Source: an uncultured Syntrophobacterales bacterium
GTDB lineage: Bacteria; Desulfobacterota; Binatia; UBA9968; JAJDTQ01
Reading direction: 5' to 3'
NCBI GenBank assembly: GCA_964630405.1
Contig: CAZVUC010000050.1
Location: 8,948 to 72,947 of the forward strand
Length of the DNA stretch: 64,000 nucleotides
Shown: positions 3,470-63,770 of the stretch, piece by piece
Layout of the letters: each line of letters begins with the position of its first letter
Position numbering within the stretch: the first letter of the stretch is position 1
The notes under the pieces: model-generated
What the model was told of the DNA's origin: nothing
Database searches by the model: none
The model's input: only the letters and a program-made list of their open reading frames with translations
Made by a program: the position numbers and the translations under genes

Positions 3470-3644
3470 GGCGGTCCCGGGCGTCGAAGACGGGCAGTCG
3501 GTTCATACTTCTCTCCTCCGGCAGCGGGTGCGGTGCGTGCGGGCTCGGTGCGTTCAGGAAGACTACTTAACTAGGCAATCGCTCGGTCCGAGTCAATCGA
3601 GTGTCCGGTGTCCCGTCCGGTCAATGAATCGACCGGACAGGACA

Positions 3645-4877
3645 CTAGTCCGGAGCCGGCCACAGCCGCCGGTCGAACCGGCGCATCCAGTCGAGACCGG
3701 TGACCCACACCGCCAGCACCGAGACCAGCAGCAGCGAGTTGGCCACGGTGAACGACACGTAGTAGCTGCCGGTGAGATCGTGCAGCGCGCCTCCCAGCCA
3801 GGCGCCCAGGCCGCCGCCGACGCCCACGCTCATGACCGAGAAACCGAAGATGGTCCCGAACCCCTTGCCGGCGAAGATGTCGGCGGTGATGGCCGAGAGG
3901 ATGACGGCGCGGGAGCCGAAGGCGATGCCGAAGCCGCCGACGTAGACGTAGAGCAGCCAAGGCTGCGAGGTGTCCGCTGCCAGGGTGAGGGCCAGGACGC
4001 CGACGGCCGCGCAGGCGATGTTGAGGGTGTAGGCCGCGGTCTTGGTGAAGGCGTCGGCGATGTAGCCGAAGGCCACGCGTCCGCCGGCGCTGACGAACGC
4101 CATGACGCCGAAGACCCCGGCGGCCCAGATGTGGCTGTAACCGATGTCCACCACGTGGGCGACCTGATGAGTGACGATCAGCATGGTGCCCACCGAGCCC
4201 AGCATCCGGGAGATGAACAGGCTCCAGAACTGTATGCTCCTTAGCGCCAGCGAAGCCGACCACTCGCCGGCAGCGGCGGCGGCCGCCGTCCCTCCCGCGC
4301 TTTGCGGGCTGGGCCGGTAGGTGCTCCACACCAGGGGTATGATCAGGATGAGGATCGCCGCCGCCAGCGCCTGGAACACCCGCGGCCAGCCCCACAGGGA
4401 GATCAGCCCCTGACTGAGGGGCGAGAGGATCAGGGTGCCCACCCCCACCGCTCCGTAGACGATGCCCAGGACGAGACCCCGGCGGGAGGGGAACCACTCC
4501 GACACCACCACCACGTGGGGAATCACGCCGCCGGCCGCGAACCCCAGCGACACCACGACCCCGAAATAGAAATAGAGCTCCCACGCCGTGCTGACCCGGC
4601 TGCACAGGAGCAGGCCGGCGGCCAGGACCACGCTGCCCGCCATCACGACCCGCCGCGGCCCCAGGCGGTCGGTGAGGCGTCCGATGAAGGGCGAAGCGAG
4701 CGCGTCGGTGACCAGGTTTGCCGTCTGAAGCCCGGCGGTGACCGCGCGGCTCCAGTGAAAAGTGTCGAGGAGCGCCACGAAGAAGACGCCGAAGGAGGTG
4801 TGGAGGCCGCGAATGAAGCCGAACGTGAACGAAGCGGCTCCGGCGATGACCCACGGATGGTTGGTTTGGCGCGTCAT
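3645..4877 (-). CDS. MFS transporter of a distinct subfamily from the three paralogs.
   Basis: 410 aa polytopic membrane protein with MFS-like topology and loop motifs (GRLTDRLGPRRV). Confidence 0.8.
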   Translation of the reverse strand: MTRQTNHPWVIAGAASFTFGFIRGLHTSFGVFFVALLDTFHWSRAVTAGLQTANLVTDALASPFIGRLTDRLGPRRVVMAGSVVLAAGLLLCSRVSTAWELYFYFGVVVSLGFAAGGVIPHVVVVSEWFPSRRGLVLGIVYGAVGVGTLILSPLSQGLISLWGWPRVFQALAAAILILIIPLVWSTYRPSPQSAGGTAAAAAAGEWSASLALRSIQFWSLFISRMLGSVGTMLIVTHQVAHVVDIGYSHIWAAGVFGVMAFVSAGGRVAFGYIADAFTKTAAYTLNIACAAVGVLALTLAADTSQPWLLYVYVGGFGIAFGSRAVILSAITADIFAGKGFGTIFGFSVMSVGVGGGLGAWLGGALHDLTGSYYVSFTVANSLLLVSVLAVWVTGLDWMRRFDRRLWPAPD

Positions 4878-27096: not shown

Positions 27097-28359
27097 ATGG
27101 GATGGACCCGAAGAGCCTTGATCAAGGGCGGCGGCTTGGCGTTGATCTCGCTTTCGCTGGGGGGCACGCCGCCGTTCCTGCGCCGCGCCGCCGTCGCCGC
27201 CGGCGATCCGTTGCCTTACGGACGCCGGAAAGTGCTGGTGGCGCTCTTTCAGCGAGGCGCCATGGACGGGTTGATGGCGGTGACGCCCATCCACGACCCG
27301 GCGCTGGCCGCCGCGCGCCCCAACCTGTTCATGAGCTTGAGGCGGGGGGACACGGCTCTCGACGGACGTTTCGCCATGCATCCCGCGTTCGCGCCGCTGT
27401 TGCCGCTGTACCGGGAGGGACGCCTGGCGGTGGTGCACGGGGTGGGTTCGGTCCACAAGACGCGCTCGCATTTCGATGCGCAGGACTACATGGAGATGGG
27501 CACGCCGGGCGTGAAGAGCACGCCGTCGGGGTGGCTCAACCGAGCCGCCGGGCTGCTCGGGCGGCCGGCGTCTTCGGCCCGGATGGTGGCGCTCACCGAC
27601 AAGCTGCCGCGGTCGTTCTACGGCGACCGCCCCGCCGTCGCCGTGGACGACCTGCAGTCCTTCGGCATCCGGGTCCCGGACGACCCGGAGGCTTCGGAGA
27701 GGTTTCGGACGGGCTTTGCGTCCATGTACGCCGGAAGCGCGAAACGTCTCGCCCGGCGGGTGGGCAGGGAAAGCTTCGAGGCGGTCGAGGTGTTGAGGAA
27801 GACCGACTGGAGCGGCTACCGCCCCGGAGACGGAGCCGTGTACCCCGATTCGGCGCTGGGCCGGCGCCTGAGACAGGTGGCCATGCTCATCAAGGCGGAG
27901 GTGGGGCTCGAAGTGGCCTTCACCGAGACCGGCGGTTGGGATACGCACGTGAGGCAGGGCACCACGGCCGGTTCCTTCGCGGACCGGGCCGCTGACCTGT
28001 CACGGGCGCTGGCGGCCTTCTGGACCGATCTCGGCCCGTATCAGGACGACGCGGTGCTCCTCACCATGACCGAGTTCGGGCGCACGGTGGAACAGAACGG
28101 TTCGCTGGGCACCGACCACGGCCGCGGGTCCTGTCTGTTCGTCCTCGGCAACGAAGTGGAAGGCGGCAGGGTGCACGGCACGGTGCCGGACCGGCTGGTG
28201 AGGGATGCGCTCGAAGACGGCCGCGATCTGCCCGTGACCACCGATTTCCGTTCCGTGTTCGCCGAGGTGGCCGGCAGACATCTGGGCATCCCGCGTTCCG
28301 ACGACGGCGTGGTGTTCCCTGGTTGGGAGGGCCGGCGGCGCAGGTTGATGAAAAACTAG
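27097..28359 (+). CDS. DUF1501 domain protein with a Tat-type signal (RRALIKGG).
   Basis: Start at the internal ATG 27097, with GGAAGG Shine-Dalgarno. 420 aa. Canonical DUF1800/DUF1501 pair. Confidence 0.8.
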   Translation: MGWTRRALIKGGGLALISLSLGGTPPFLRRAAVAAGDPLPYGRRKVLVALFQRGAMDGLMAVTPIHDPALAAARPNLFMSLRRGDTALDGRFAMHPAFAPLLPLYREGRLAVVHGVGSVHKTRSHFDAQDYMEMGTPGVKSTPSGWLNRAAGLLGRPASSARMVALTDKLPRSFYGDRPAVAVDDLQSFGIRVPDDPEASERFRTGFASMYAGSAKRLARRVGRESFEAVEVLRKTDWSGYRPGDGAVYPDSALGRRLRQVAMLIKAEVGLEVAFTETGGWDTHVRQGTTAGSFADRAADLSRALAAFWTDLGPYQDDAVLLTMTEFGRTVEQNGSLGTDHGRGSCLFVLGNEVEGGRVHGTVPDRLVRDALEDGRDLPVTTDFRSVFAEVAGRHLGIPRSDDGVVFPGWEGRRRRLMKN

Positions 28360-28372
28360 GACAGGCTCCTAG
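28359..28372. repeat. Solo copy of the element-B terminal motif GGACAGGCTCCTAG. It spans the stop codons of two convergent genes.
   Basis: 14/14 identity with the right terminus of element B (62474-62487). The palindromic CTAG supplies TAG stops on both strands. Confidence 0.35.
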
Positions 28373-31686: not shown

Positions 31687-31762
<76 letters not shown>

Positions 31763-47756: not shown

Positions 47757-48467
47757 ATGATGACGATCGCATTGGACGCGGCGGCGGGCGCCCTCCCCGC
47801 GAGCCGCGGCGTGTCACGCTTCCCTGGTTGGATTGCGGCGGTCTTCTGCGCCGCCCTGTTGCTGCCGTTGCCGGGTCCCCGCGCGCAGGAAGCCGCGAAC
47901 ATCGTCCGGGAAGTGCAGCGTCGCTACGACGCCACGCGGGACTACAGCGCCGACTTCCGGCAGACCACCGAGTACCGCACCCTCAACCGGCGCATCGAAG
48001 GCAAGGGCCGGGTCTACTTCAGCAAACCGGCGAAGATGCTGTGGCGCTACGAGGACGCTGACGGACAGTTCGTCTTGTCCGACGGGCGCGCCCTCTACTT
48101 CTATCAGCCGGCCGAACGGCAGGTGATCAAGACCGCCCTCGGGTCGGTGTTCCGCTCGGACCTTCCGCTTTCCTTCCTGCTGGGCGTCGGCGATCTCGAC
48201 CGGGATTTCCGGGCAGAGTTGACGGCCTCCACTCCCGACGCCCACGTGCTGAAGCTCTTTCCCCGAAAAGCCAATACGGGCGTGACCGAGATCCAGCTCT
48301 CCGTGGACCCGGACAGCCACGACATCCGACAGGTCCTCATCGAGGATGCCGCGGGCAACGGTTGGACCTTCCGCTTCGACAACGTCCGCCACGGGGCAGG
48401 GCTGGATCCGGCGTTGTTCGAGCTGAAAGCGCCGCAAGGTGTCGATATCGTTGAGTTTGGGTCTTAG
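47757..48467 (+). CDS. lolA: Outer-membrane lipoprotein carrier protein LolA.
   Basis: Signal peptide. LolA fold motifs. Conserved ftsK-lolA synteny. Confidence 0.8.
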   Translation: MMTIALDAAAGALPASRGVSRFPGWIAAVFCAALLLPLPGPRAQEAANIVREVQRRYDATRDYSADFRQTTEYRTLNRRIEGKGRVYFSKPAKMLWRYEDADGQFVLSDGRALYFYQPAERQVIKTALGSVFRSDLPLSFLLGVGDLDRDFRAELTASTPDAHVLKLFPRKANTGVTEIQLSVDPDSHDIRQVLIEDAAGNGWTFRFDNVRHGAGLDPALFELKAPQGVDIVEFGS

Positions 48468-48627
48468 TGTCGTGTCCCACACAATGCTTTACCGATCTGC
48501 TTGTCTTTCTTGTCGTCGGCTGCGTTGCTCTTCCTCGCGTGGTGCCCGCCACTGCTCGTCATCGCGCCTTGCCGACAACAAGAAATCCTGCGCATCCCGG
48601 TAAAGCATTGTGTGGGACACGACACTA
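48465..48627 (-). ncRNA. Nested-hairpin repeat element, copy A. Candidate structured RNA on the minus strand.
   Basis: Perfect 30-bp outer inverted repeat (48465-48494 with 48598-48627). It encloses a ~100-nt core with an inner 15-bp stem (48506-48520 with 48571-85). The single inner-stem mismatch is C/A on the plus strand, which is G-U on the minus strand. The core is about 90% identical to copy B. The element starts at the TAG stop of lolA. Confidence 0.65.
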
Positions 48628-48731
48628 GGGCCGCGTCTCCTTCGGCAAGCCCCCACGGTGGTGGCCGCGTCTCTCGTATTGACTCCGTCTCGAAATAGTG
48701 GTGAATTGTGTCTCTTCCAGGAGACACGACC

Positions 48732-49157
48732 ATGAGGAAAGACGTTCTGAAGAAATTCCGGGAGACCCTCCTCGGCATGAAGGGTCAACTGCTGGAGGAT
48801 ATCCCGGACCGGCTCAAGCACGAGGTGGAGAGCTCCAAGGACGAGGGACGCGACACCTACGATTTGGCCAGCGACGAGCGGGATCGTGAGATCAACATGA
48901 TACTGAACGATCGCGAACGGGCGAAGCTGATGGCCATCGAGGATGCGCTGCTCCGGCTCGGCGAGGGTTCCTACGGCATCTGCGACGAGTGCGGGGAAGA
49001 TATCGGCGTCGGCCGGCTCAAGGTGATGCCGTTCACGCGGTTGTGCGTGCGCTGCCAGGAGGAGCTGGAGAAGGAATCCCGCATGACGAAGAACTTCGAC
49101 GACGATCGAACCTTCCGCCGGCTCACGACGACGGACACGGAAGAGGAAAGCTATTAA
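48732..49157 (+). CDS. DksA/TraR-family C4 zinc-finger protein.
   Basis: CxxC-x17-CxxC (CDECGEDIG...CVRCQ). Shine-Dalgarno AGGAGA before the ATG at 48732. Confidence 0.75.
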   Translation: MRKDVLKKFRETLLGMKGQLLEDIPDRLKHEVESSKDEGRDTYDLASDERDREINMILNDRERAKLMAIEDALLRLGEGSYGICDECGEDIGVGRLKVMPFTRLCVRCQEELEKESRMTKNFDDDRTFRRLTTTDTEEESY

Positions 49158-50584: not shown

Positions 50585-51616
50585 ATGATCCGGCACCATC
50601 CGATCCCATGGCGTCACTTCATGCGCGCCGCGCTGTTGCTGGCGCTCGCCGTCGGCGTCGCGGCCGGCCGCGCCCGGGCCAACCTGGAAGCTTTGCCCGC
50701 CGCCGAGCTGGAGAAGCAGGCCTACGCCAAGATCGTGGAGGCCCGTGGCAGCGCACGGGCGGAGCGTTACCCCGACGCGCTGACTCGGTTGGATGATGCA
50801 GTGACGCTGGCGGAGCAACTGGACGACAAGCTGCCGCTGGCGTTGGCGCTTCACAACAAGGGTGAAGTGGAGCTGCTCCGGGGCCGGCCGCTGGATGCCC
50901 TGAAAGCCTACTACAGGGTCTTGGGGGTCTACAGGCGGCTGGGGCACCAAGCCGGCGCCGCGCTGGTTCAGAAGCGGATCGGAATGCTGACGCGGCTGGT
51001 CAAGAAGCCCGAGAAGCCGGCCGCCGCCCCGCCTCAAGAGGCGCCCGCGGCGAAAGCCCCGGACCGCCTTTCGCTCGTCGACCAGGCGGTGGAGCGGATC
51101 CGCGCGCGGATCAGGTCCGCCGGTCAGAAAGCGCCCGAGAAGCCGGCGCTGGTCGAAACACGCCGGACGGTGGAACCGCCGGTACCCGTCGAGGCACGAG
51201 GAACCGGGGAGCCGCCGCCGCCCGTCCCGACAACCCCGCCCGAGGAGCCGCCGCAGCCGTCGGTCCAGGTGGCGCGAGCCGAGCCCCGATCCGGGGCGGA
51301 CAATCCACGGGAGTGGGCCTACGTGGAATCCCTCAAGAGGAAGATCAGCGCCCGGTCGCGGTATCCCGCCTACGCCAGGCGAACGGGTCAGCAGGGGACT
51401 GTGGCCGTTGTCGTCGCGGTGCGCGAGAACGGCGAGCTCGCCGGCGTCGAACTGTCCGAGTCGTCCGGCTTCATCGTGCTGGATGTGGAGGCCCTCCGCA
51501 ACGTCCGGGAGTCCGCCCCTTTCGGTCCCGTGCCCACCCGCGCGGTTCCGGGCCCCCTGACCGTCCGCATGACCGTCAGCTACACGCTGCCGGCCGCGTC
51601 CGGCCCTGCGCCCTAG
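50585..51616 (+). CDS. TonB C-terminal-domain protein with a Pro-rich linker and a TPR-like N-terminal region.
   Basis: Signal or transmembrane N-terminus. PEKPAAAPP and PPPPVPTTPPEEPP linker. C-terminus YPAYARRTGQQGTVAVVVAV...GPLTVRMTVSY. Confidence 0.65.
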   Translation: MIRHHPIPWRHFMRAALLLALAVGVAAGRARANLEALPAAELEKQAYAKIVEARGSARAERYPDALTRLDDAVTLAEQLDDKLPLALALHNKGEVELLRGRPLDALKAYYRVLGVYRRLGHQAGAALVQKRIGMLTRLVKKPEKPAAAPPQEAPAAKAPDRLSLVDQAVERIRARIRSAGQKAPEKPALVETRRTVEPPVPVEARGTGEPPPPVPTTPPEEPPQPSVQVARAEPRSGADNPREWAYVESLKRKISARSRYPAYARRTGQQGTVAVVVAVRENGELAGVELSESSGFIVLDVEALRNVRESAPFGPVPTRAVPGPLTVRMTVSYTLPAASGPAP

Positions 51617-51663
51617 GCGTATTCCCGACCAGCGCGCTTTCACCCGGGTCCAATGCGAGGACA

Positions 51664-52443
51664 CTAACGGACTGCGCCGGGCTGCGGGCCAGCCGATGGC
51701 GGGGTTCCGAGCGTGGTGATCTGGGCGAGAGCGAACGCGTGGCGCGGATGGAGCGCGAGGGCGCGGATGTAGTTGACGTCTGCCTGTCCGTGGAAGCCCA
51801 GGGCGGTGGCGTTGCGCGCCCGCAGCACATGGATCTCCGCCAGCCAGCGGTCGTCGGCCGCCAGTCTCGACTCCGCCACATCGAGAAAGCTCAGGGATTC
51901 GCGGTAGTTCTTCAGGAGGTAGTGTGCCCGGGCCACGAAATAGTGGCTGTAGGGGTTGGTGGCGTCCACGCCGATGGCGCGTTCGAAGCGGGCCAGCGCG
52001 GCCCTGTAGTCTCCGGTCCTGAGAAGATCCCGGCCCTGTTGCACCAGCTTCACGGAAGCCCTTCGCCGCGGCATGGTCGTGCCGTCGAAAGCCGCCAGGG
52101 AGGGCAACTCGTACGATCCGTCGGGGACGGGAGCGTCGATCGGGTCACGTCCCCGCTCGATGTTCACCGCGGCCTCCGGAACCCCCGGCGCCGCGACCGC
52201 GCCGGGGAGCGGCTCACGCACCGCCGGCGCTGGAGCCGGTACGGTTACCGACAGGTCCTCTTCATGGATCGTGCCCTGACGGAGGGCCGGAGACGGAGCC
52301 TCCTGGCCGGTAGGAGCGTTTTGCGGAAAGGCGATCCCGCACGCAAGGATTGCCGTCAGGAACACCGCCCCCGACGCCGCCCGTGCGAAGGGGAACGTCC
52401 TTTCTCCCGGCGTATCCGCTTTCGCGCTCACCGTTGTTCCCAC
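51664..52443 (-). CDS. TPR-repeat lipoprotein.
   Basis: Lipobox ILAC. TPR helices (AALARFERAIGVD...YHYFVARAHY). Confidence 0.5.
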   Translation of the reverse strand: MGTTVSAKADTPGERTFPFARAASGAVFLTAILACGIAFPQNAPTGQEAPSPALRQGTIHEEDLSVTVPAPAPAVREPLPGAVAAPGVPEAAVNIERGRDPIDAPVPDGSYELPSLAAFDGTTMPRRRASVKLVQQGRDLLRTGDYRAALARFERAIGVDATNPYSHYFVARAHYLLKNYRESLSFLDVAESRLAADDRWLAEIHVLRARNATALGFHGQADVNYIRALALHPRHAFALAQITTLGTPPSAGPQPGAVR

Positions 52444-60694: not shown

Positions 60695-61151
60695 TGTCCT
60701 GTTCGTCGACACGAGCGTGTTGTTGATCGCGACCGACGCCTCGCGGAGGTGGCACGAGGAAGCGATGCGGCTGTTCACCGATGCTGACTCCCGTGGAGTT
60801 CACCTTGCGGTGAGCGGCCAGGTCTTCCGGGAGTATCTGGTGGTGGCAACCCGCCCGGGGGAAGCAAACGGCCTCGGCATGAAGGTAGAGGATGCGATCG
60901 CCAACGTAAACGAGTTCGTGCGCCTTACGCATTCCTACGACGAAACGGAAAAGGTGGCGCGCCGACTGCGGCAACTTGCACTGACCTACGGCCTGCACGG
61001 CAAGGTGCTCCATGACGCCAATATCGTCGCCACAATGACGGTCAACGATATTTCCGTCCTGGTGACGCAGAACCTGGACGACTTTGCCCGGTTCGATGAG
61101 ATAGAGGGCGTCGCGCTGGACGAGGTTTCGCTGGATGGGGGTGGGCCATGA
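60675..61151 (+). CDS. vapC: PIN-domain toxin VapC.
   Basis: Reads VLFVDTSVLL...D...NLDDF, which gives the acidic PIN residues. 158 aa from the ATG at 60675. Confidence 0.75.
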   Translation: MTPTAGDVLFVDTSVLLIATDASRRWHEEAMRLFTDADSRGVHLAVSGQVFREYLVVATRPGEANGLGMKVEDAIANVNEFVRLTHSYDETEKVARRLRQLALTYGLHGKVLHDANIVATMTVNDISVLVTQNLDDFARFDEIEGVALDEVSLDGGGP

Positions 61152-62326
61152 CACGTTCGGAGTTGGTCCGTCGCCGGCTGCAGTCGGGCCGTCCATCGCG
61201 CCGCCTCGCGGCCGCGGCTCTCGCCCTGGCCCTCGGCTGGTCCGGGATTGCTGCCGCGGACACGGTGGAACAGACCGAGCGACATGCGGTGCGCGTGCGC
61301 ATCCTGACCCGCGGGCTCGAACGCCCGTGGTCGCTGGCCTTCCTTCCGGACGGACGGATGCTGGTCACCGAGCGGGCCGGCCGGCTGCGCTACGTCGCAG
61401 CCGACGGCACGCTGGATCCGACTCCCATCACCGGGCTCCCCGAAGCGGTGGCGGAGAGGCGGCAGGGCGGCCTGCACGACGTCGTGTTGCACCCCCGGTT
61501 CTCGCGGAACCGCCTCGTCTATCTCGCCTATGCCGGCAAGGGCGCGGGGGGCTACGGCACCGAGCTCGCCCGGGGGCGGCTTGACGGCCACCGCCTCACC
61601 GACGTGCAGGTCCTGTTCCGGGCCTTGCCCAAGTCGTGGGGCGGCCGCCACTTCGGCGGCCGGGTGGTGTTCGACGGCAAGGGGCACGTGTTCCTGACCC
61701 TGGGGGACCGGGGCAACCGTCCGAGCGCGCAGGACCTGGGCGACCACGCGGGTTCGATGATCCGCCTCACCGAGGACGGCGGCGTGCCGAAGGACAACCC
61801 CTACCTGTCCGTGGTCGGCGCGAGGCCGGAGATCTACACCCTCGGCAACCGCAACGTGCAGGGCGCGGCCATCCATCCGCGGACCGGCGAGCTCTGGACC
61901 CACGAGCACGGGCCGCAGGGCGGCGACGAGATCAACATCATCCGGGCCGGCGTCAACTACGGGTGGCCGGTGATCACCTACGGCAGGAACTACGGGATCG
62001 GCACGCGCATCGGCGAGGGGACCCACGGGGAAGGCATGGCCCAGCCCCTGCACCAGTGGACGCCGTCCATCGCGCCCTCGGGCATGGCGTTCTATGACGG
62101 CGACAAGTTCCCCCGCTGGCGCGGCAACCTGCTGGTAGGCGCGCTCGCGTTCCGCCTGCTCGCGCGGATCGAGCTTGACGGAGAGCGGGTCGTCCGCGAA
62201 GAGCGGATTCTGAAGGGGGTCATCGGCCGCATCCGCGATGTCCGGGTGGGCCCCGACGGATACGTCTACCTTCTGAGCGACGAGCAACCGGGCGTGCTCG
62301 CGCGCCTCGAGCCCGCCGGCGGCTAG
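61148..62326 (+). CDS. PQQ-dependent soluble sugar (aldose) dehydrogenase, YliI/Asd-like.
   Basis: Signal peptide. Beta-propeller motifs (PWSLAFLPDG...TLGDRG...NYGWP). Confidence 0.85.
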   Translation: MTRSELVRRRLQSGRPSRRLAAAALALALGWSGIAAADTVEQTERHAVRVRILTRGLERPWSLAFLPDGRMLVTERAGRLRYVAADGTLDPTPITGLPEAVAERRQGGLHDVVLHPRFSRNRLVYLAYAGKGAGGYGTELARGRLDGHRLTDVQVLFRALPKSWGGRHFGGRVVFDGKGHVFLTLGDRGNRPSAQDLGDHAGSMIRLTEDGGVPKDNPYLSVVGARPEIYTLGNRNVQGAAIHPRTGELWTHEHGPQGGDEINIIRAGVNYGWPVITYGRNYGIGTRIGEGTHGEGMAQPLHQWTPSIAPSGMAFYDGDKFPRWRGNLLVGALAFRLLARIELDGERVVREERILKGVIGRIRDVRVGPDGYVYLLSDEQPGVLARLEPAGG

Positions 62327-62487
62327 GAGCCTGTCCGGGTAATACGTCGGCGAATCTGCTGGTCCTTCTTGCCGTCGGCCGCGTTGCTCCTCCTCGCGTG
62401 GGGGTGGCCACTGCTCGTCGTCGCGCCTTGCCGACAACAAGAAGTCCTGCGCATCTTCACCAACGTATTACCCGGACAGGCTCCTAG
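62323..62487 (-). ncRNA. Nested-hairpin repeat element, copy B. Candidate structured RNA on the minus strand.
   Basis: 31-bp outer inverted repeat (62323-62353 with 62457-62487). Its two mismatches are both C/A on the plus strand, which is G-U on the minus strand. Inner 15-bp stem 62365-79 with 62430-44 has two C/A mismatches on the plus strand. Relative to copy A it carries a compensatory T:A to C:G change at the stem base. The CTAG ends supply the TAG stops of both flanking convergent genes. Confidence 0.65.
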
Positions 62488-63770
62488 TCCGCACCCCCCT
62501 CGGCTCTCAGCGAATCCAGCGCCTCCTCCACGAGTTTGCGCCGCAACGCCTTCTCCTCGTCGGGCGGCAGGCTGGCGTCTCCGGCCACGTGGATGATGCC
62601 GGTTCCCAACACGACACGGTTGGAGCCCACCATCTTGGCGATGGGCAGGGCGGAGGTCAGTTGCACGACCGGGACGCCGGCCTTTTCGAGCTCGGTGGTG
62701 ATCGCAGCGCCGCTGCGAGTGCTGGTGCCTCACGTGGAGGTGAGGATGACGGCGTCGACCCCCTCGCGCTTGACTTTCTCGGCCATCTCCCGGCCCAGCC
62801 GGCGGGTGTTGGAGAGGGGGTTGGACAGGCCGGACGTGGACAGGAACTCTCCGTGTATCTTGCCCACGGCGCCCTCTTTCTCCAGTTGCCTGAGGGCGTC
62901 GAGGGGGACGAGGCGGTCGGGGTCGGCCTGCACGAAGCGCGGGTCGTAGCCGCCGTGGGAGATCTCGTAGTCATCGCCCGCGAGGTCGTCGTCGCCGGAG
63001 ATGTCGTAGGCGCCCCAGCGCGTGGCGGCCATGCCTTCGATATTGTCCGGATTGCCCTTGGGCACCAAGCCTCCGTCGGTGATGAGCATCACCGTGGCCT
63101 TGGAGATGTCGTCCACGCCCCTGGGCTTGGCCACCGGCTGGAACGAGGTGACGGGCATCTCGGTGTCGAACGGCTGGTCCTGGGCCTTGGCCAGGACCAT
63201 GTCCACCAGGCGCTCGGCCGAGGACTTGTCGACGAACCGGTCCCGTATCAGCCCCCGGGTCAGGTATCCCTCTTCTTCGGGCAGGCCGACGGCCTCTCCC
63301 GCCGCCAGCTTCCGGGCCAGTCCGGCCATGCGCTCCACCACCTCCTTCATCTTCGCCGCGTTCTTTCCGGAGTCGATGATGTAGAGGCCTTCCCGGTAGA
63401 GGTCCACGCCCGGGTTCTCCTCGTGCATGGCGGTGACGGCCGGAATGCCGAGCTCCGTCTGCACCGCGCTGCACAAGGCGCCCGCGGCCATGCCGTAGCG
63501 GCCGGCGTCGAAGCACGGGCCGGCCACGAACAGGTCCGCCTCCACGCCCCGGACATGTTCGAGGACCGCGGCTGTCAGCTCCTCCTGATGCTCGACAGCG
63601 TAGTTGTCGCCGCAGACCAGGGCCTTGACGACGGTGGCCCCGTCGCCGAGGCTCCGTTCCAGCAGGCGGCCGGGGCCGACGGCGCCCTCGACCTCCCGCA
63701 GCGGGCTCCCGGCCTGTTCCTCGCCGCCGATTCCTCCGAAAAACTGGTTGAGGTAGTGGACGATCCTCAT
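62484..63770 (-). CDS. GrdB-family protein (glycine/sarcosine/betaine reductase selenoprotein B-like). About 428 aa if the in-frame TGA at 62730-62732 is read as selenocysteine.
   Basis: N-terminus MRIVHYLNQFFGGIGGEE matches the GrdB N-terminus. Shine-Dalgarno AAGGAGG 8 nt upstream. The 346-aa ORF ends at a TGA. The next 81 codons continue in frame with no stop, and they include the track's 62484..62666 ORF. Context reads ILTST-U-GTSTRSGA, which I compare to UxxCxxC from recalled GrdB literature. Confidence 0.6.

Follow-up and report, generated by a model that had tools for sequence, protein, structure and literature searches.

Two palindromic repeats at gene ends in a Binatia contig

We analysed a 64,000-nucleotide stretch (the window, whose first base is position 1) of contig CAZVUC010000050.1, from an uncultured Syntrophobacterales bacterium of the class Binatia. 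Two copies of a palindromic element lie in it exactly where they were originally predicted from the letters alone: copy A at 48465-48627, behind the lolA gene, and copy B at 62323-62487, between a plus-strand glucose/sorbosone dehydrogenase gene (61148-62326) and a minus-strand grdB-like gene. The original prediction took the pair for a selected RNA secondary structure rather than a transposon copy. We find that A and B are very probably copies of a non-autonomous miniature transposon bounded by inverted repeats (MITE) that is mobilised by IS630-family transposases into the TA of CTAG, with about an even chance that its hairpin is also under selection at the RNA level.

The element proper measures 159 bp, begins with G and ends with C, and consists of 28-bp terminal inverted repeats enclosing a 103-nt core (Table 1); we set these limits, with the TA outside them as a target-site duplication, because of two orthologous empty sites described below. 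Within the window there are exactly two occurrences of the conserved core blocks, against none in shuffled sequence, and searches with an nhmmer family profile and with blastn agree on two copies. The cores of A and B are identical at 91 of 103 bases (88%), in line with the roughly 90% first estimated. A perfect outer stem of 30-31 bp had been described for both copies; this is true of copy A, whose arms pair at 28 of 28 positions (30 bp counting the flanking TA), but not of copy B, where 26 of 28 positions pair. The mismatches are, as predicted, C opposite A on the plus strand, with two in the arms of copy B and, in the 15-bp inner stem, one in A and two in B. The outer stems of the two copies were also thought to be unrelated to each other. 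They share TA+G..C.TGTCC, with 7 of the first 12 element bases identical, and across the 49 copies aligned below the arms are homologous terminal inverted repeats.

Table 1. Parts of the two element copies and an unoccupied target site, in window coordinates
Feature	Position	Strand	Remarks
Copy A, left TA target-site duplication	48465..48466		Deduced from empty sites found elsewhere
Copy A, left terminal inverted repeat (28 nt)	48467..48494		GTGTCGTGTCCCACACAATGCTTTACCG; 28/28 complementary to 48598-48625
Copy A, conserved core (103 nt)	48495..48597	-	Minus is the better-pairing strand
Copy A, inner stem, plus-strand left arm	48506..48520		Pairs with 48571-48585 at 14/15 positions, exception C/A
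Copy A, inner stem, plus-strand right arm	48571..48585		GCCGACAACAAGAAA; almost invariant family-wide
Copy A, right terminal inverted repeat	48598..48625		Complement of left arm
Copy A, right TA target-site duplication	48626..48627		
Copy B, left TA duplication	62324..62325		
Copy B, left terminal inverted repeat ("B-type" subfamily)	62326..62353		GGAGCCTGTCCGGGTAATACGTCGGCGA; 26/28 complementary to 62457-62484, two C/A exceptions
Copy B, conserved core	62354..62456	-	Inner stem arms 62365-62379 and 62430-62444
Copy B, right terminal inverted repeat	62457..62484		Ends in C (62484)
Copy B, right TA duplication	62485..62486		
Unoccupied CTAG target at end of TonB_C-domain gene	51613..51616		Orthologous site L063 (OY761465.1) carries full element

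A dispersed family that duplicates TA

An 18-mer of the core, scanned against one genome per species, returned at least 116 loci (loci carry L-numbers below), about half of which are chance matches in unrelated bacteria. The remainder come from at least 13 genomes, labelled Candidatus Binatia or else Thermodesulfobacteriota or Deltaproteobacteria with the same element, and the copies are dispersed among them at non-orthologous sites; a scan of viral contigs for the 18-mer gave no match. With the cores as queries, blastn found at least 82 places in the loci listed, at least 56 of them full length with flanks, and our alignment statistics use 49 in-register copies from these loci. Neither window copy is among the loci listed, so the window's own genome lay outside the scanned sample; its nearest relative there is OY761465.1, which shows about 90% identity in the L063 flanks. 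Many cores from other genomes are 98-100% identical to that of copy A, including two, at L100 and L073 of another genome, that match it at 100%.

Two orthologous pairs of filled and empty sites settle that the element moves and that it duplicates TA. The flanks of the L063 element align to window positions 51215-51615 and 51614-52010 at about 90% identity and overlap by TA: the filled site reads gcgccCTA[GTGTCC…GGACAC]TAGgcgt, and the window, empty at this point, reads gcgccCTAGgcgt. Likewise, L053 is filled (gtccgTA[GTGGCC…GGCCAC]TAgtccgg) and L047 is empty (gtccgTAgttcgg). In both pairs the single TA of the empty site stands on each side of the element in the filled one. Across the alignment TA is found on both sides in 43 of the 49 copies; of all 49, 39 have C ahead of the left TA and 41 have G behind the right TA. 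Reconstruction of the target gives CTAG for 29 of the 43 and nTAn for the others.

All aligned arms are equal in length and open with a common terminal motif, TA followed by GTGTssTGTCC…AAT. There are more than ten arm types in the family. The majority arm is GTGTCCTGTCCCACGTAATTCTTTACCA, from which copy A departs at five positions, and the arm type of copy B recurs in five other loci (L002, L031, L083, L115 and L113). Inverted repeats, small size, many dispersed copies and a TA duplication demonstrated by filled and empty sites identify the element as a MITE; it contains no transposase gene, and the candidate open reading frame within it is not conserved.

The family's ends match those of an autonomous insertion sequence (IS) in the same lineage. 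At L031 (4505-5656) a 1,152-bp IS with the same kind of ends encodes a 365-amino-acid protein that matches the IS630 transposase model NCBIfam NF033545 (254.8 bits, cut-off 100) as well as Pfam DDE_3 and helix-turn-helix domains. The same transposase occurs at L117 and L118, each time between CTA and TAG, making three IS copies at different sites. Within their CTA…TAG sites these IS end in GTGTACTGTCCCAC and GTGTCGTGTCCC; the portions to be compared with the MITE are GTGTACTGTCCCACAAAT and GTGTCGTGTCCCGCAAAT, and copy A begins GTGTCGTGTCCCACACAAT. The IS right end at L117 and L118, GTGTCGTGTCCCGCAAAT, equals the first 12-14 bases of the copy A arm. Among 120 transposase homologues the proteins begin MPRGRP… and end …SGT.H, with the flanking TA plus G as stop codon; the conservation of GTG…TGTCCC thus follows from the IS right end being coding.

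Together with the TA duplication and the CTAG preference, these matching ends place the element with the IS630/Tc1-mariner group. IS630-family elements are cut and pasted into TA, which they duplicate, and for ISY100 the 24-bp ends correspond to the transposase footprint and 30 bp per end suffice (PMC2170065). IS630 is cited as preferring the TA in 5'-CTAG-3' (Tenzen & Ohtsubo 1991, cited in PMC2170065). An IS-derived element with conserved terminal inverted repeats, which is what we find, is the very thing that the original prediction had set against its own non-transposon reading.

Two observations weigh against this identification. A tblastn search for a transposase homologue across the window and the loci found the L031 copy only and none in the window; a transposase partner in the window's own genome is our assumption. 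The resemblance between element and IS also stops after the terminal 14-20 bp, with an interior unlike either IS end, and the element is no simple deletion derivative of this IS. We looked for a parent IS whose ends carry halves of the core and dropped the idea: no such parent was found, the N- and C-termini read in the 120 transposase homologues being all of the MPRGRP… and …SGT.H kind, and the half-elements described below end in a G+C hairpin rather than in a transposase gene. As a separate observation, an IS110-family transposase gene (L117 2616-3521; DEDD_Tnp_IS110, Transposase_20) lies about 24 bp past the right end of the IS630-family element at L117 and may be a nested or targeted insertion.

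Insertion at TAG stop codons

The left TA of copy A and the G at 48467 together form the TAG stop of lolA (48465-48467). The left TA of copy B and the G at 62326 do the same for the dehydrogenase gene, and on the opposite strand the C at 62484 with the TA to its right gives the TAG of the grdB-like gene. The prediction that both copies abut the stop codons of their flanking genes therefore stands for lolA and for both neighbours of copy B but fails at the right end of copy A, where the next gene, dksA-like and on the plus strand, starts at 48732. Across the family, at least 25 element ends fall on the TAG stop of a gene verified by Pfam.

The abutment follows from the preference for TA within CTAG, and since the element has G as its first base and C as its last, a TAG stop that it enters is rebuilt at the border. 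The window has 66.5% G+C and 15 CTAG in 64 kb; at such a composition TA and CTAG are rare, and stop codons are among the harmless places that hold them. New CTAG-like sites also arise at the borders of every insertion, and these account for insertions end to end. Pairs with a single common TA are seen as an IS followed by a MITE at L031 (5650-5660), as a MITE followed by an IS at L118 (about 1420-1450) and as MITE-MITE tandems at L009, L032 and L036. At L036 (about 1536-1560), the EngA/Der GTPase gene ends in …GRTGH and a stop read from a solo arm remnant (CCGGACAGGACAC followed by TAG) that lies beside a full element; here transposon ends have rewritten the C-terminus of a host protein.

Strand-specific constraint on the hairpin

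RNA folds of both strands are far more stable than those of shuffled sequences (z -10 to -15). Folding each copy on each strand, as had been proposed, favoured the minus strand in both, with -105.5 versus -101.5 kcal/mol for A and -123.6 versus -105.1 kcal/mol for B. Over the 49 copies the minus-strand fold is favoured by an average of 10 kcal/mol, and 45 copies fold better on that strand. The double change that had been noted between the copies (tttcttg/caagaaA versus Cttcttg/caagaaG) is real, the corresponding alignment columns (45:150) holding UA in 41 copies and CG in 5. The covariation predicted from the two copies extends to the family: 98.6% of cells pair as against 86.5% in shuffles, a count that overstates the number of independent events because the copies are related, and in the outer helix alone the figure is 97.9%. 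Double changes occur in 30 of 59 pairs, 27 of them among the 34 pairs of the outer helix, and none of 500 shuffles or of the slid registers approaches the observed covariation.

Covariation between transposon ends does not by itself show an RNA, and for this reason we examined the strand on which the constraint acts. Non-Watson-Crick pair types present in one copy only, which we call young, comprise 15 minus-strand G·U, 12 plus-strand G·U and 17 that are neither. Old types, present in at least three copies, comprise 11, 1 and 0, respectively (Fisher p 0.03 when compared with plus-strand G·U only and 0.0006 when compared with all other types). The strand-specific wobbles of the original prediction thus hold for the shared types, with 11 of 12 being minus-strand G·U, but not for single-copy mismatches. 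In the inner stem, the position of copy A's exception holds minus-strand U·G in 44 of the 49 copies; two other positions are divided between U-A and U·G (30/19 and 38/9 copies), and the mirror-image mismatch never occurs. Transcription-associated C-to-T mutation bias was considered as the sole cause of this asymmetry and rejected, since single-copy mismatches are unbiased and, in about half of the old wobbles, an A/G polymorphism faces an invariant U. The minus strand is the one read by most co-directional neighbours (18 versus 6 and 13 versus 2 under two gene filters), both counts coming from a home-made gene caller based on G+C at third codon positions.

Taken together, these results describe a transposon whose hairpin shows a strand-specific, RNA-like constraint and no free-standing RNA gene. 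What was predicted as a selected RNA structure rather than a transposon copy is a transposon, and the covariation and wobble on which that prediction was built survive on 49 copies.

Besides the relatedness of the copies and the origin of the orientation counts, several observations weigh against a role as RNA. With Pfam-verified genes whose stop lies at the border, 17 are minus-sense and 8 plus-sense, a trend only (two-sided binomial p ~0.11). Copy A is in the minority orientation, as lolA and the dksA-like gene both transcribe the plus strand. Very stable hairpins form on both strands. No promoter- or terminator-like signal was found on either strand in 48300-48800, and no T run, as expected of a Rho-independent terminator, follows the hairpin in copy A or B. 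Consistent with the original statement that no RNA family could be matched, an Rfam (15) search of the window at gathering thresholds returned a tRNA (31690-31762) as its sole match, and a permissive Rfam search of 48400-48700 gave only a chance snoRNA match (21.9 bits versus a threshold of 48). The tRNA gene lies on the minus strand.

Invariant core, variable arms

Mean pairwise identity is 0.84 over the terminal 13 columns of each arm, 0.56 over the inner 18 columns and 0.89-0.94 in the core. Copy A and the L073 element illustrate this: their cores are identical over 102 nt and their arms differ at 5 of 28 positions, mirrored in both. The variable arm positions fall between and beyond the conserved blocks TGTCC and AAT, which may be transposase contacts, judging by the two helix-turn-helix motifs and by the footprint known for ISY100 (PMC2170065). 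Per site, the arms have only about twice as many private changes as the core, and this difference suggests that conservation acts mainly on multiplying lineages rather than on each resident copy. From these patterns, we infer that something in the core and the pairing of the stem matter for persistence or spread. A long-core variant also occurs, with a core of 124-128 nt (element 180-184 bp) and an additional G+C hairpin at its apex.

Proposed mechanism and alternatives

Based on the established biochemistry of the family, we propose that a DDE transposase of IS630/Tc1-mariner type, supplied in trans, would bind the arm ends (GTGTssTGTCC…AAT), excise the element and paste it into a TA. Once inserted, the element would be transcribed within the 3' region of a neighbouring gene, usually the gene ending at the right border, and its minus strand would form a hairpin of about 60 bp. 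The lineages that persist and multiply would be those keeping this hairpin, in which G·U is tolerated and C·A is not, together with the core sequence. On the sequence evidence, transcription of the minus strand with selection for hairpin integrity is about as probable as its opposite. That the hairpin stabilises or processes the upstream mRNA, as is described for MITE RNA structures in general (PMC2229807), is speculative, and so is the alternative that the core serves as a cis requirement for mobilisation.

A more far-reaching version, which we consider somewhat unlikely, makes core and stem a strand-specific functional RNA module that rides on an IS630-type MITE, with selection on the minus-strand fold and the core deciding which lineages persist. 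Transposition would then scatter a ready-made 3' untranslated region element behind stop codons, where it would act as a stabiliser, a processing site or a protein-binding site; in a variant of this idea the folded single strand would itself be needed for mobilisation. A serious possibility, though short of probable, is that the same MITE has no RNA role and that the complementarity of its arms is kept at the DNA level, possibly by template-switch "quasipalindrome correction" between inverted repeats that lie close together or because both ends must fit one transposase; the core would then be conserved as a cis need for transposition or through a recent spread of the family. Templated mutation in quasipalindromes has reportedly been described by Ripley in 1982 and by the Lovett laboratory. 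The near-perfect arms of the MITE, compared with about 17/21 in the 1.15-kb autonomous IS, would suit a DNA process that depends on distance, and the deficit of private substitutions in the core relative to arm mismatches, only about twofold per site, points to weak in-place selection on each copy. The failure to find promoter or terminator signals in 48300-48800, and an orientation of copy A that is wrong for a minus-strand transcript, fit a DNA-level account as well. However, a process acting on the duplex gives no reason for C·A to be tolerated on one strand only, with old mismatches at 11:1 for minus-strand G·U and new ones unbiased, nor for the orientation bias relative to genes, and a cis need for a core of 100 nt would be unusual when ISY100 transposes with 24-30 bp per end (PMC2170065).

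The remaining explanations fare much worse. Covariation, minus-strand wobbles and the better minus-strand fold would all be expected of independent, immobile minus-strand genes, each for a structured non-coding RNA of some 160 nt, as originally proposed, but this is very improbable given the TA duplications, the empty orthologous sites, the IS630-type ends and the insertions end to end; the copies are moreover scattered at non-orthologous sites in at least 13 genomes, half-elements and variants with a replaced apex exist, and neither a promoter-like site nor an Rfam match was found. A minus-strand micro-protein of 32 codons, running from ATG to the terminal TAG (MTSSGGHHARKSNAADDKKDQQIGKELRGTGH, for example, in majority-type copies), is hardly credible and was dropped because neither its start codon nor its frame is conserved: in the B-type subfamily and several others ACG, GCC or the like stands in place of the ATG, the additions of 21, 22, 24 or 25 nt in apex variants break the frame, and subfamily differences are mostly non-synonymous in it. 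What had spoken for such a protein is the coding-like G+C of the consensus frame (about 81% at third and 42% at second positions), which is also the frame in which the IS630 transposases of the subgroup end, in …GT.H and a stop. We give practically no credence to a mobile 103-nt core that enters unrelated palindromes already in place, terminators for instance, at their centre. The idea arises when only A and B are compared and their arms look different, but it was abandoned on the 49 copies, which have a constant arm length, constant core junctions and a constant terminal motif, and whose TA duplication lies outside the arms rather than at the borders of the core; no arm palindrome of A or B without a core was found in the window or the loci.

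Remnants, partial elements and a neighbouring gene

Other traces of the family or its relatives were seen in the window. At 28356-28372, CTAG-GACAGGCTCC-TAG places about 10 nt of a B-type arm between two TA, exactly between two convergent stop codons, and has the look of a B-type remnant or footprint. A 78-bp piece at 3571-3648 has CTAG at both borders and one arm-like end (GTGTCCTGTCCGGTC, minus strand), which pairs with a second copy of that end close by to give a mini-hairpin; the piece probably represents a degenerate family relative.

Half-elements occur at L051 (7822), L054 (6072), L065 (1936), L111 (228), L006 (3526) and L001 (5651). In each, one arm is joined by the core's 5' half (minus strand) and by a G+C hairpin (GGGGCGACCnnnGGTCGCCCC or GGGCGGGTTTCAAACCCGCCC), after which host sequence begins. 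It is these hairpins that also make up the apex in the long-core variants; outside the element, hairpins of this type are rare among the loci and absent from the window. L052 and L022 carry elements that are 93.5% identical, with left flanks at 79% identity and right flanks that do not align, and it is uncertain whether they represent a shared (orthologous) insertion. Further small elements have the same arm motif (TAGGAaCCTGTCCGAGTAAT…) and wholly different interiors (L003 816, L038 7656, L093 4742, L092 2775-2918, and L076 296 and 1960); among them, one of about 75 nt has CCCTCTCCC…GGGAGAGGG and another measures about 145 nt. One transposase type thus seems to drive several MITE families.

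The grdB-like gene beside copy B (62484-63770, minus strand) matches Pfam GRDB, the glycine/sarcosine/betaine reductase selenoprotein B family, over 346 amino acids. It contains an in-frame TGA at 62730-62732 (…LTST-TGA-GTSTR…) after which 81 more codons stay open as far as the border TAG of the MITE. The TGA is probably a selenocysteine codon, and automatic annotation may for that reason split the gene.

Relation to known repeats and significance

By its mode of transposition the element belongs with RUP and other IS630-derived MITEs. RUP of the pneumococcus, a 107-bp MITE attributed to IS630-Spn1, is likewise non-autonomous, has inverted repeats like those of its host's IS630-family IS, inserts at TA and occurs in many intergenic copies, frequently beside or inside IS elements (PMC2229807). 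Compared by description, RUP differs in its host phylum and in having no reported functional motif (PMC2229807), and the Binatia element, unlike RUP, has a core far more conserved than its inner arms and strand-specific wobbles. With IS630 and ISY100 it shares the TA duplication and the CTAG preference, and its terminal bases are identical to those of the Binatia IS (L031, L117 and L118). In contrast to IS630 and ISY100, it carries no transposase gene, and its length is 159 bp, compared with about 1.15 kb. Its arms are perfectly complementary over 28 bp, whereas those of the IS are imperfect, and its interior is unrelated to that of the IS found.

In architecture and likely RNA behaviour, the element appears to resemble Correia/NEMIS of Neisseria, ERIC of enterobacteria and bcr1 of Bacillus, which are MITE-like repeats of 100-160 bp that are co-transcribed with their neighbours and fold end to end into long RNA hairpins (PMC2229807, PMC3184786). 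In bcr1, compensatory changes preserve the double-stranded RNA structure (PMC3184786), and RNA structures formed by MITEs regulate adjacent mRNAs (PMC2229807). Correia, ERIC and bcr1 differ from the Binatia element in host, presumably in sequence and, where known, in target duplication (5 bp for bcr1), and the likeness to these three and to RUP lies solely in architecture and presumed mode of action. REP and REPIN sequences, mobilised by the Y1 (HUH) transposase RAYT, are also short extragenic palindromes, often between convergent genes and with proposed roles in termination or mRNA stability, but they are 20-40 bp long, carry a GTAG or CGTC tag and make no target duplication (PMC3116915, PMC3733652). 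With its ends of TA followed by GTGT…, its 159 bp and its TA duplication, the Binatia element is not one of them.

Our full-text literature search found no description of such repeats in Binatia. The unusual features of this family are an invariant core beside hypervariable covarying arms and the asymmetry between old and young wobbles. To our knowledge, hypervariable covarying inner arms next to an invariant core have not been described for Correia, ERIC or bcr1.

For annotation, our results account for the perfect palindrome, some 160 bp long, that recurs behind TAG stops in Binatia genomes, and flag its relics and empty targets. For transposon biology, the family offers a natural data set of dozens of copies and more than ten arm subfamilies in closed genomes, in which separable parts can be told apart: the terminal 12-20 bp needed by the transposase, a stem that must only pair, and a strongly conserved core. 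Should the strand-specific constraint not reflect an RNA function, this would be an ordinary MITE. If an RNA function is real, the element would be a further mobile post-transcriptional MITE module, like bcr1, ERIC and Correia, in a barely studied phylum.

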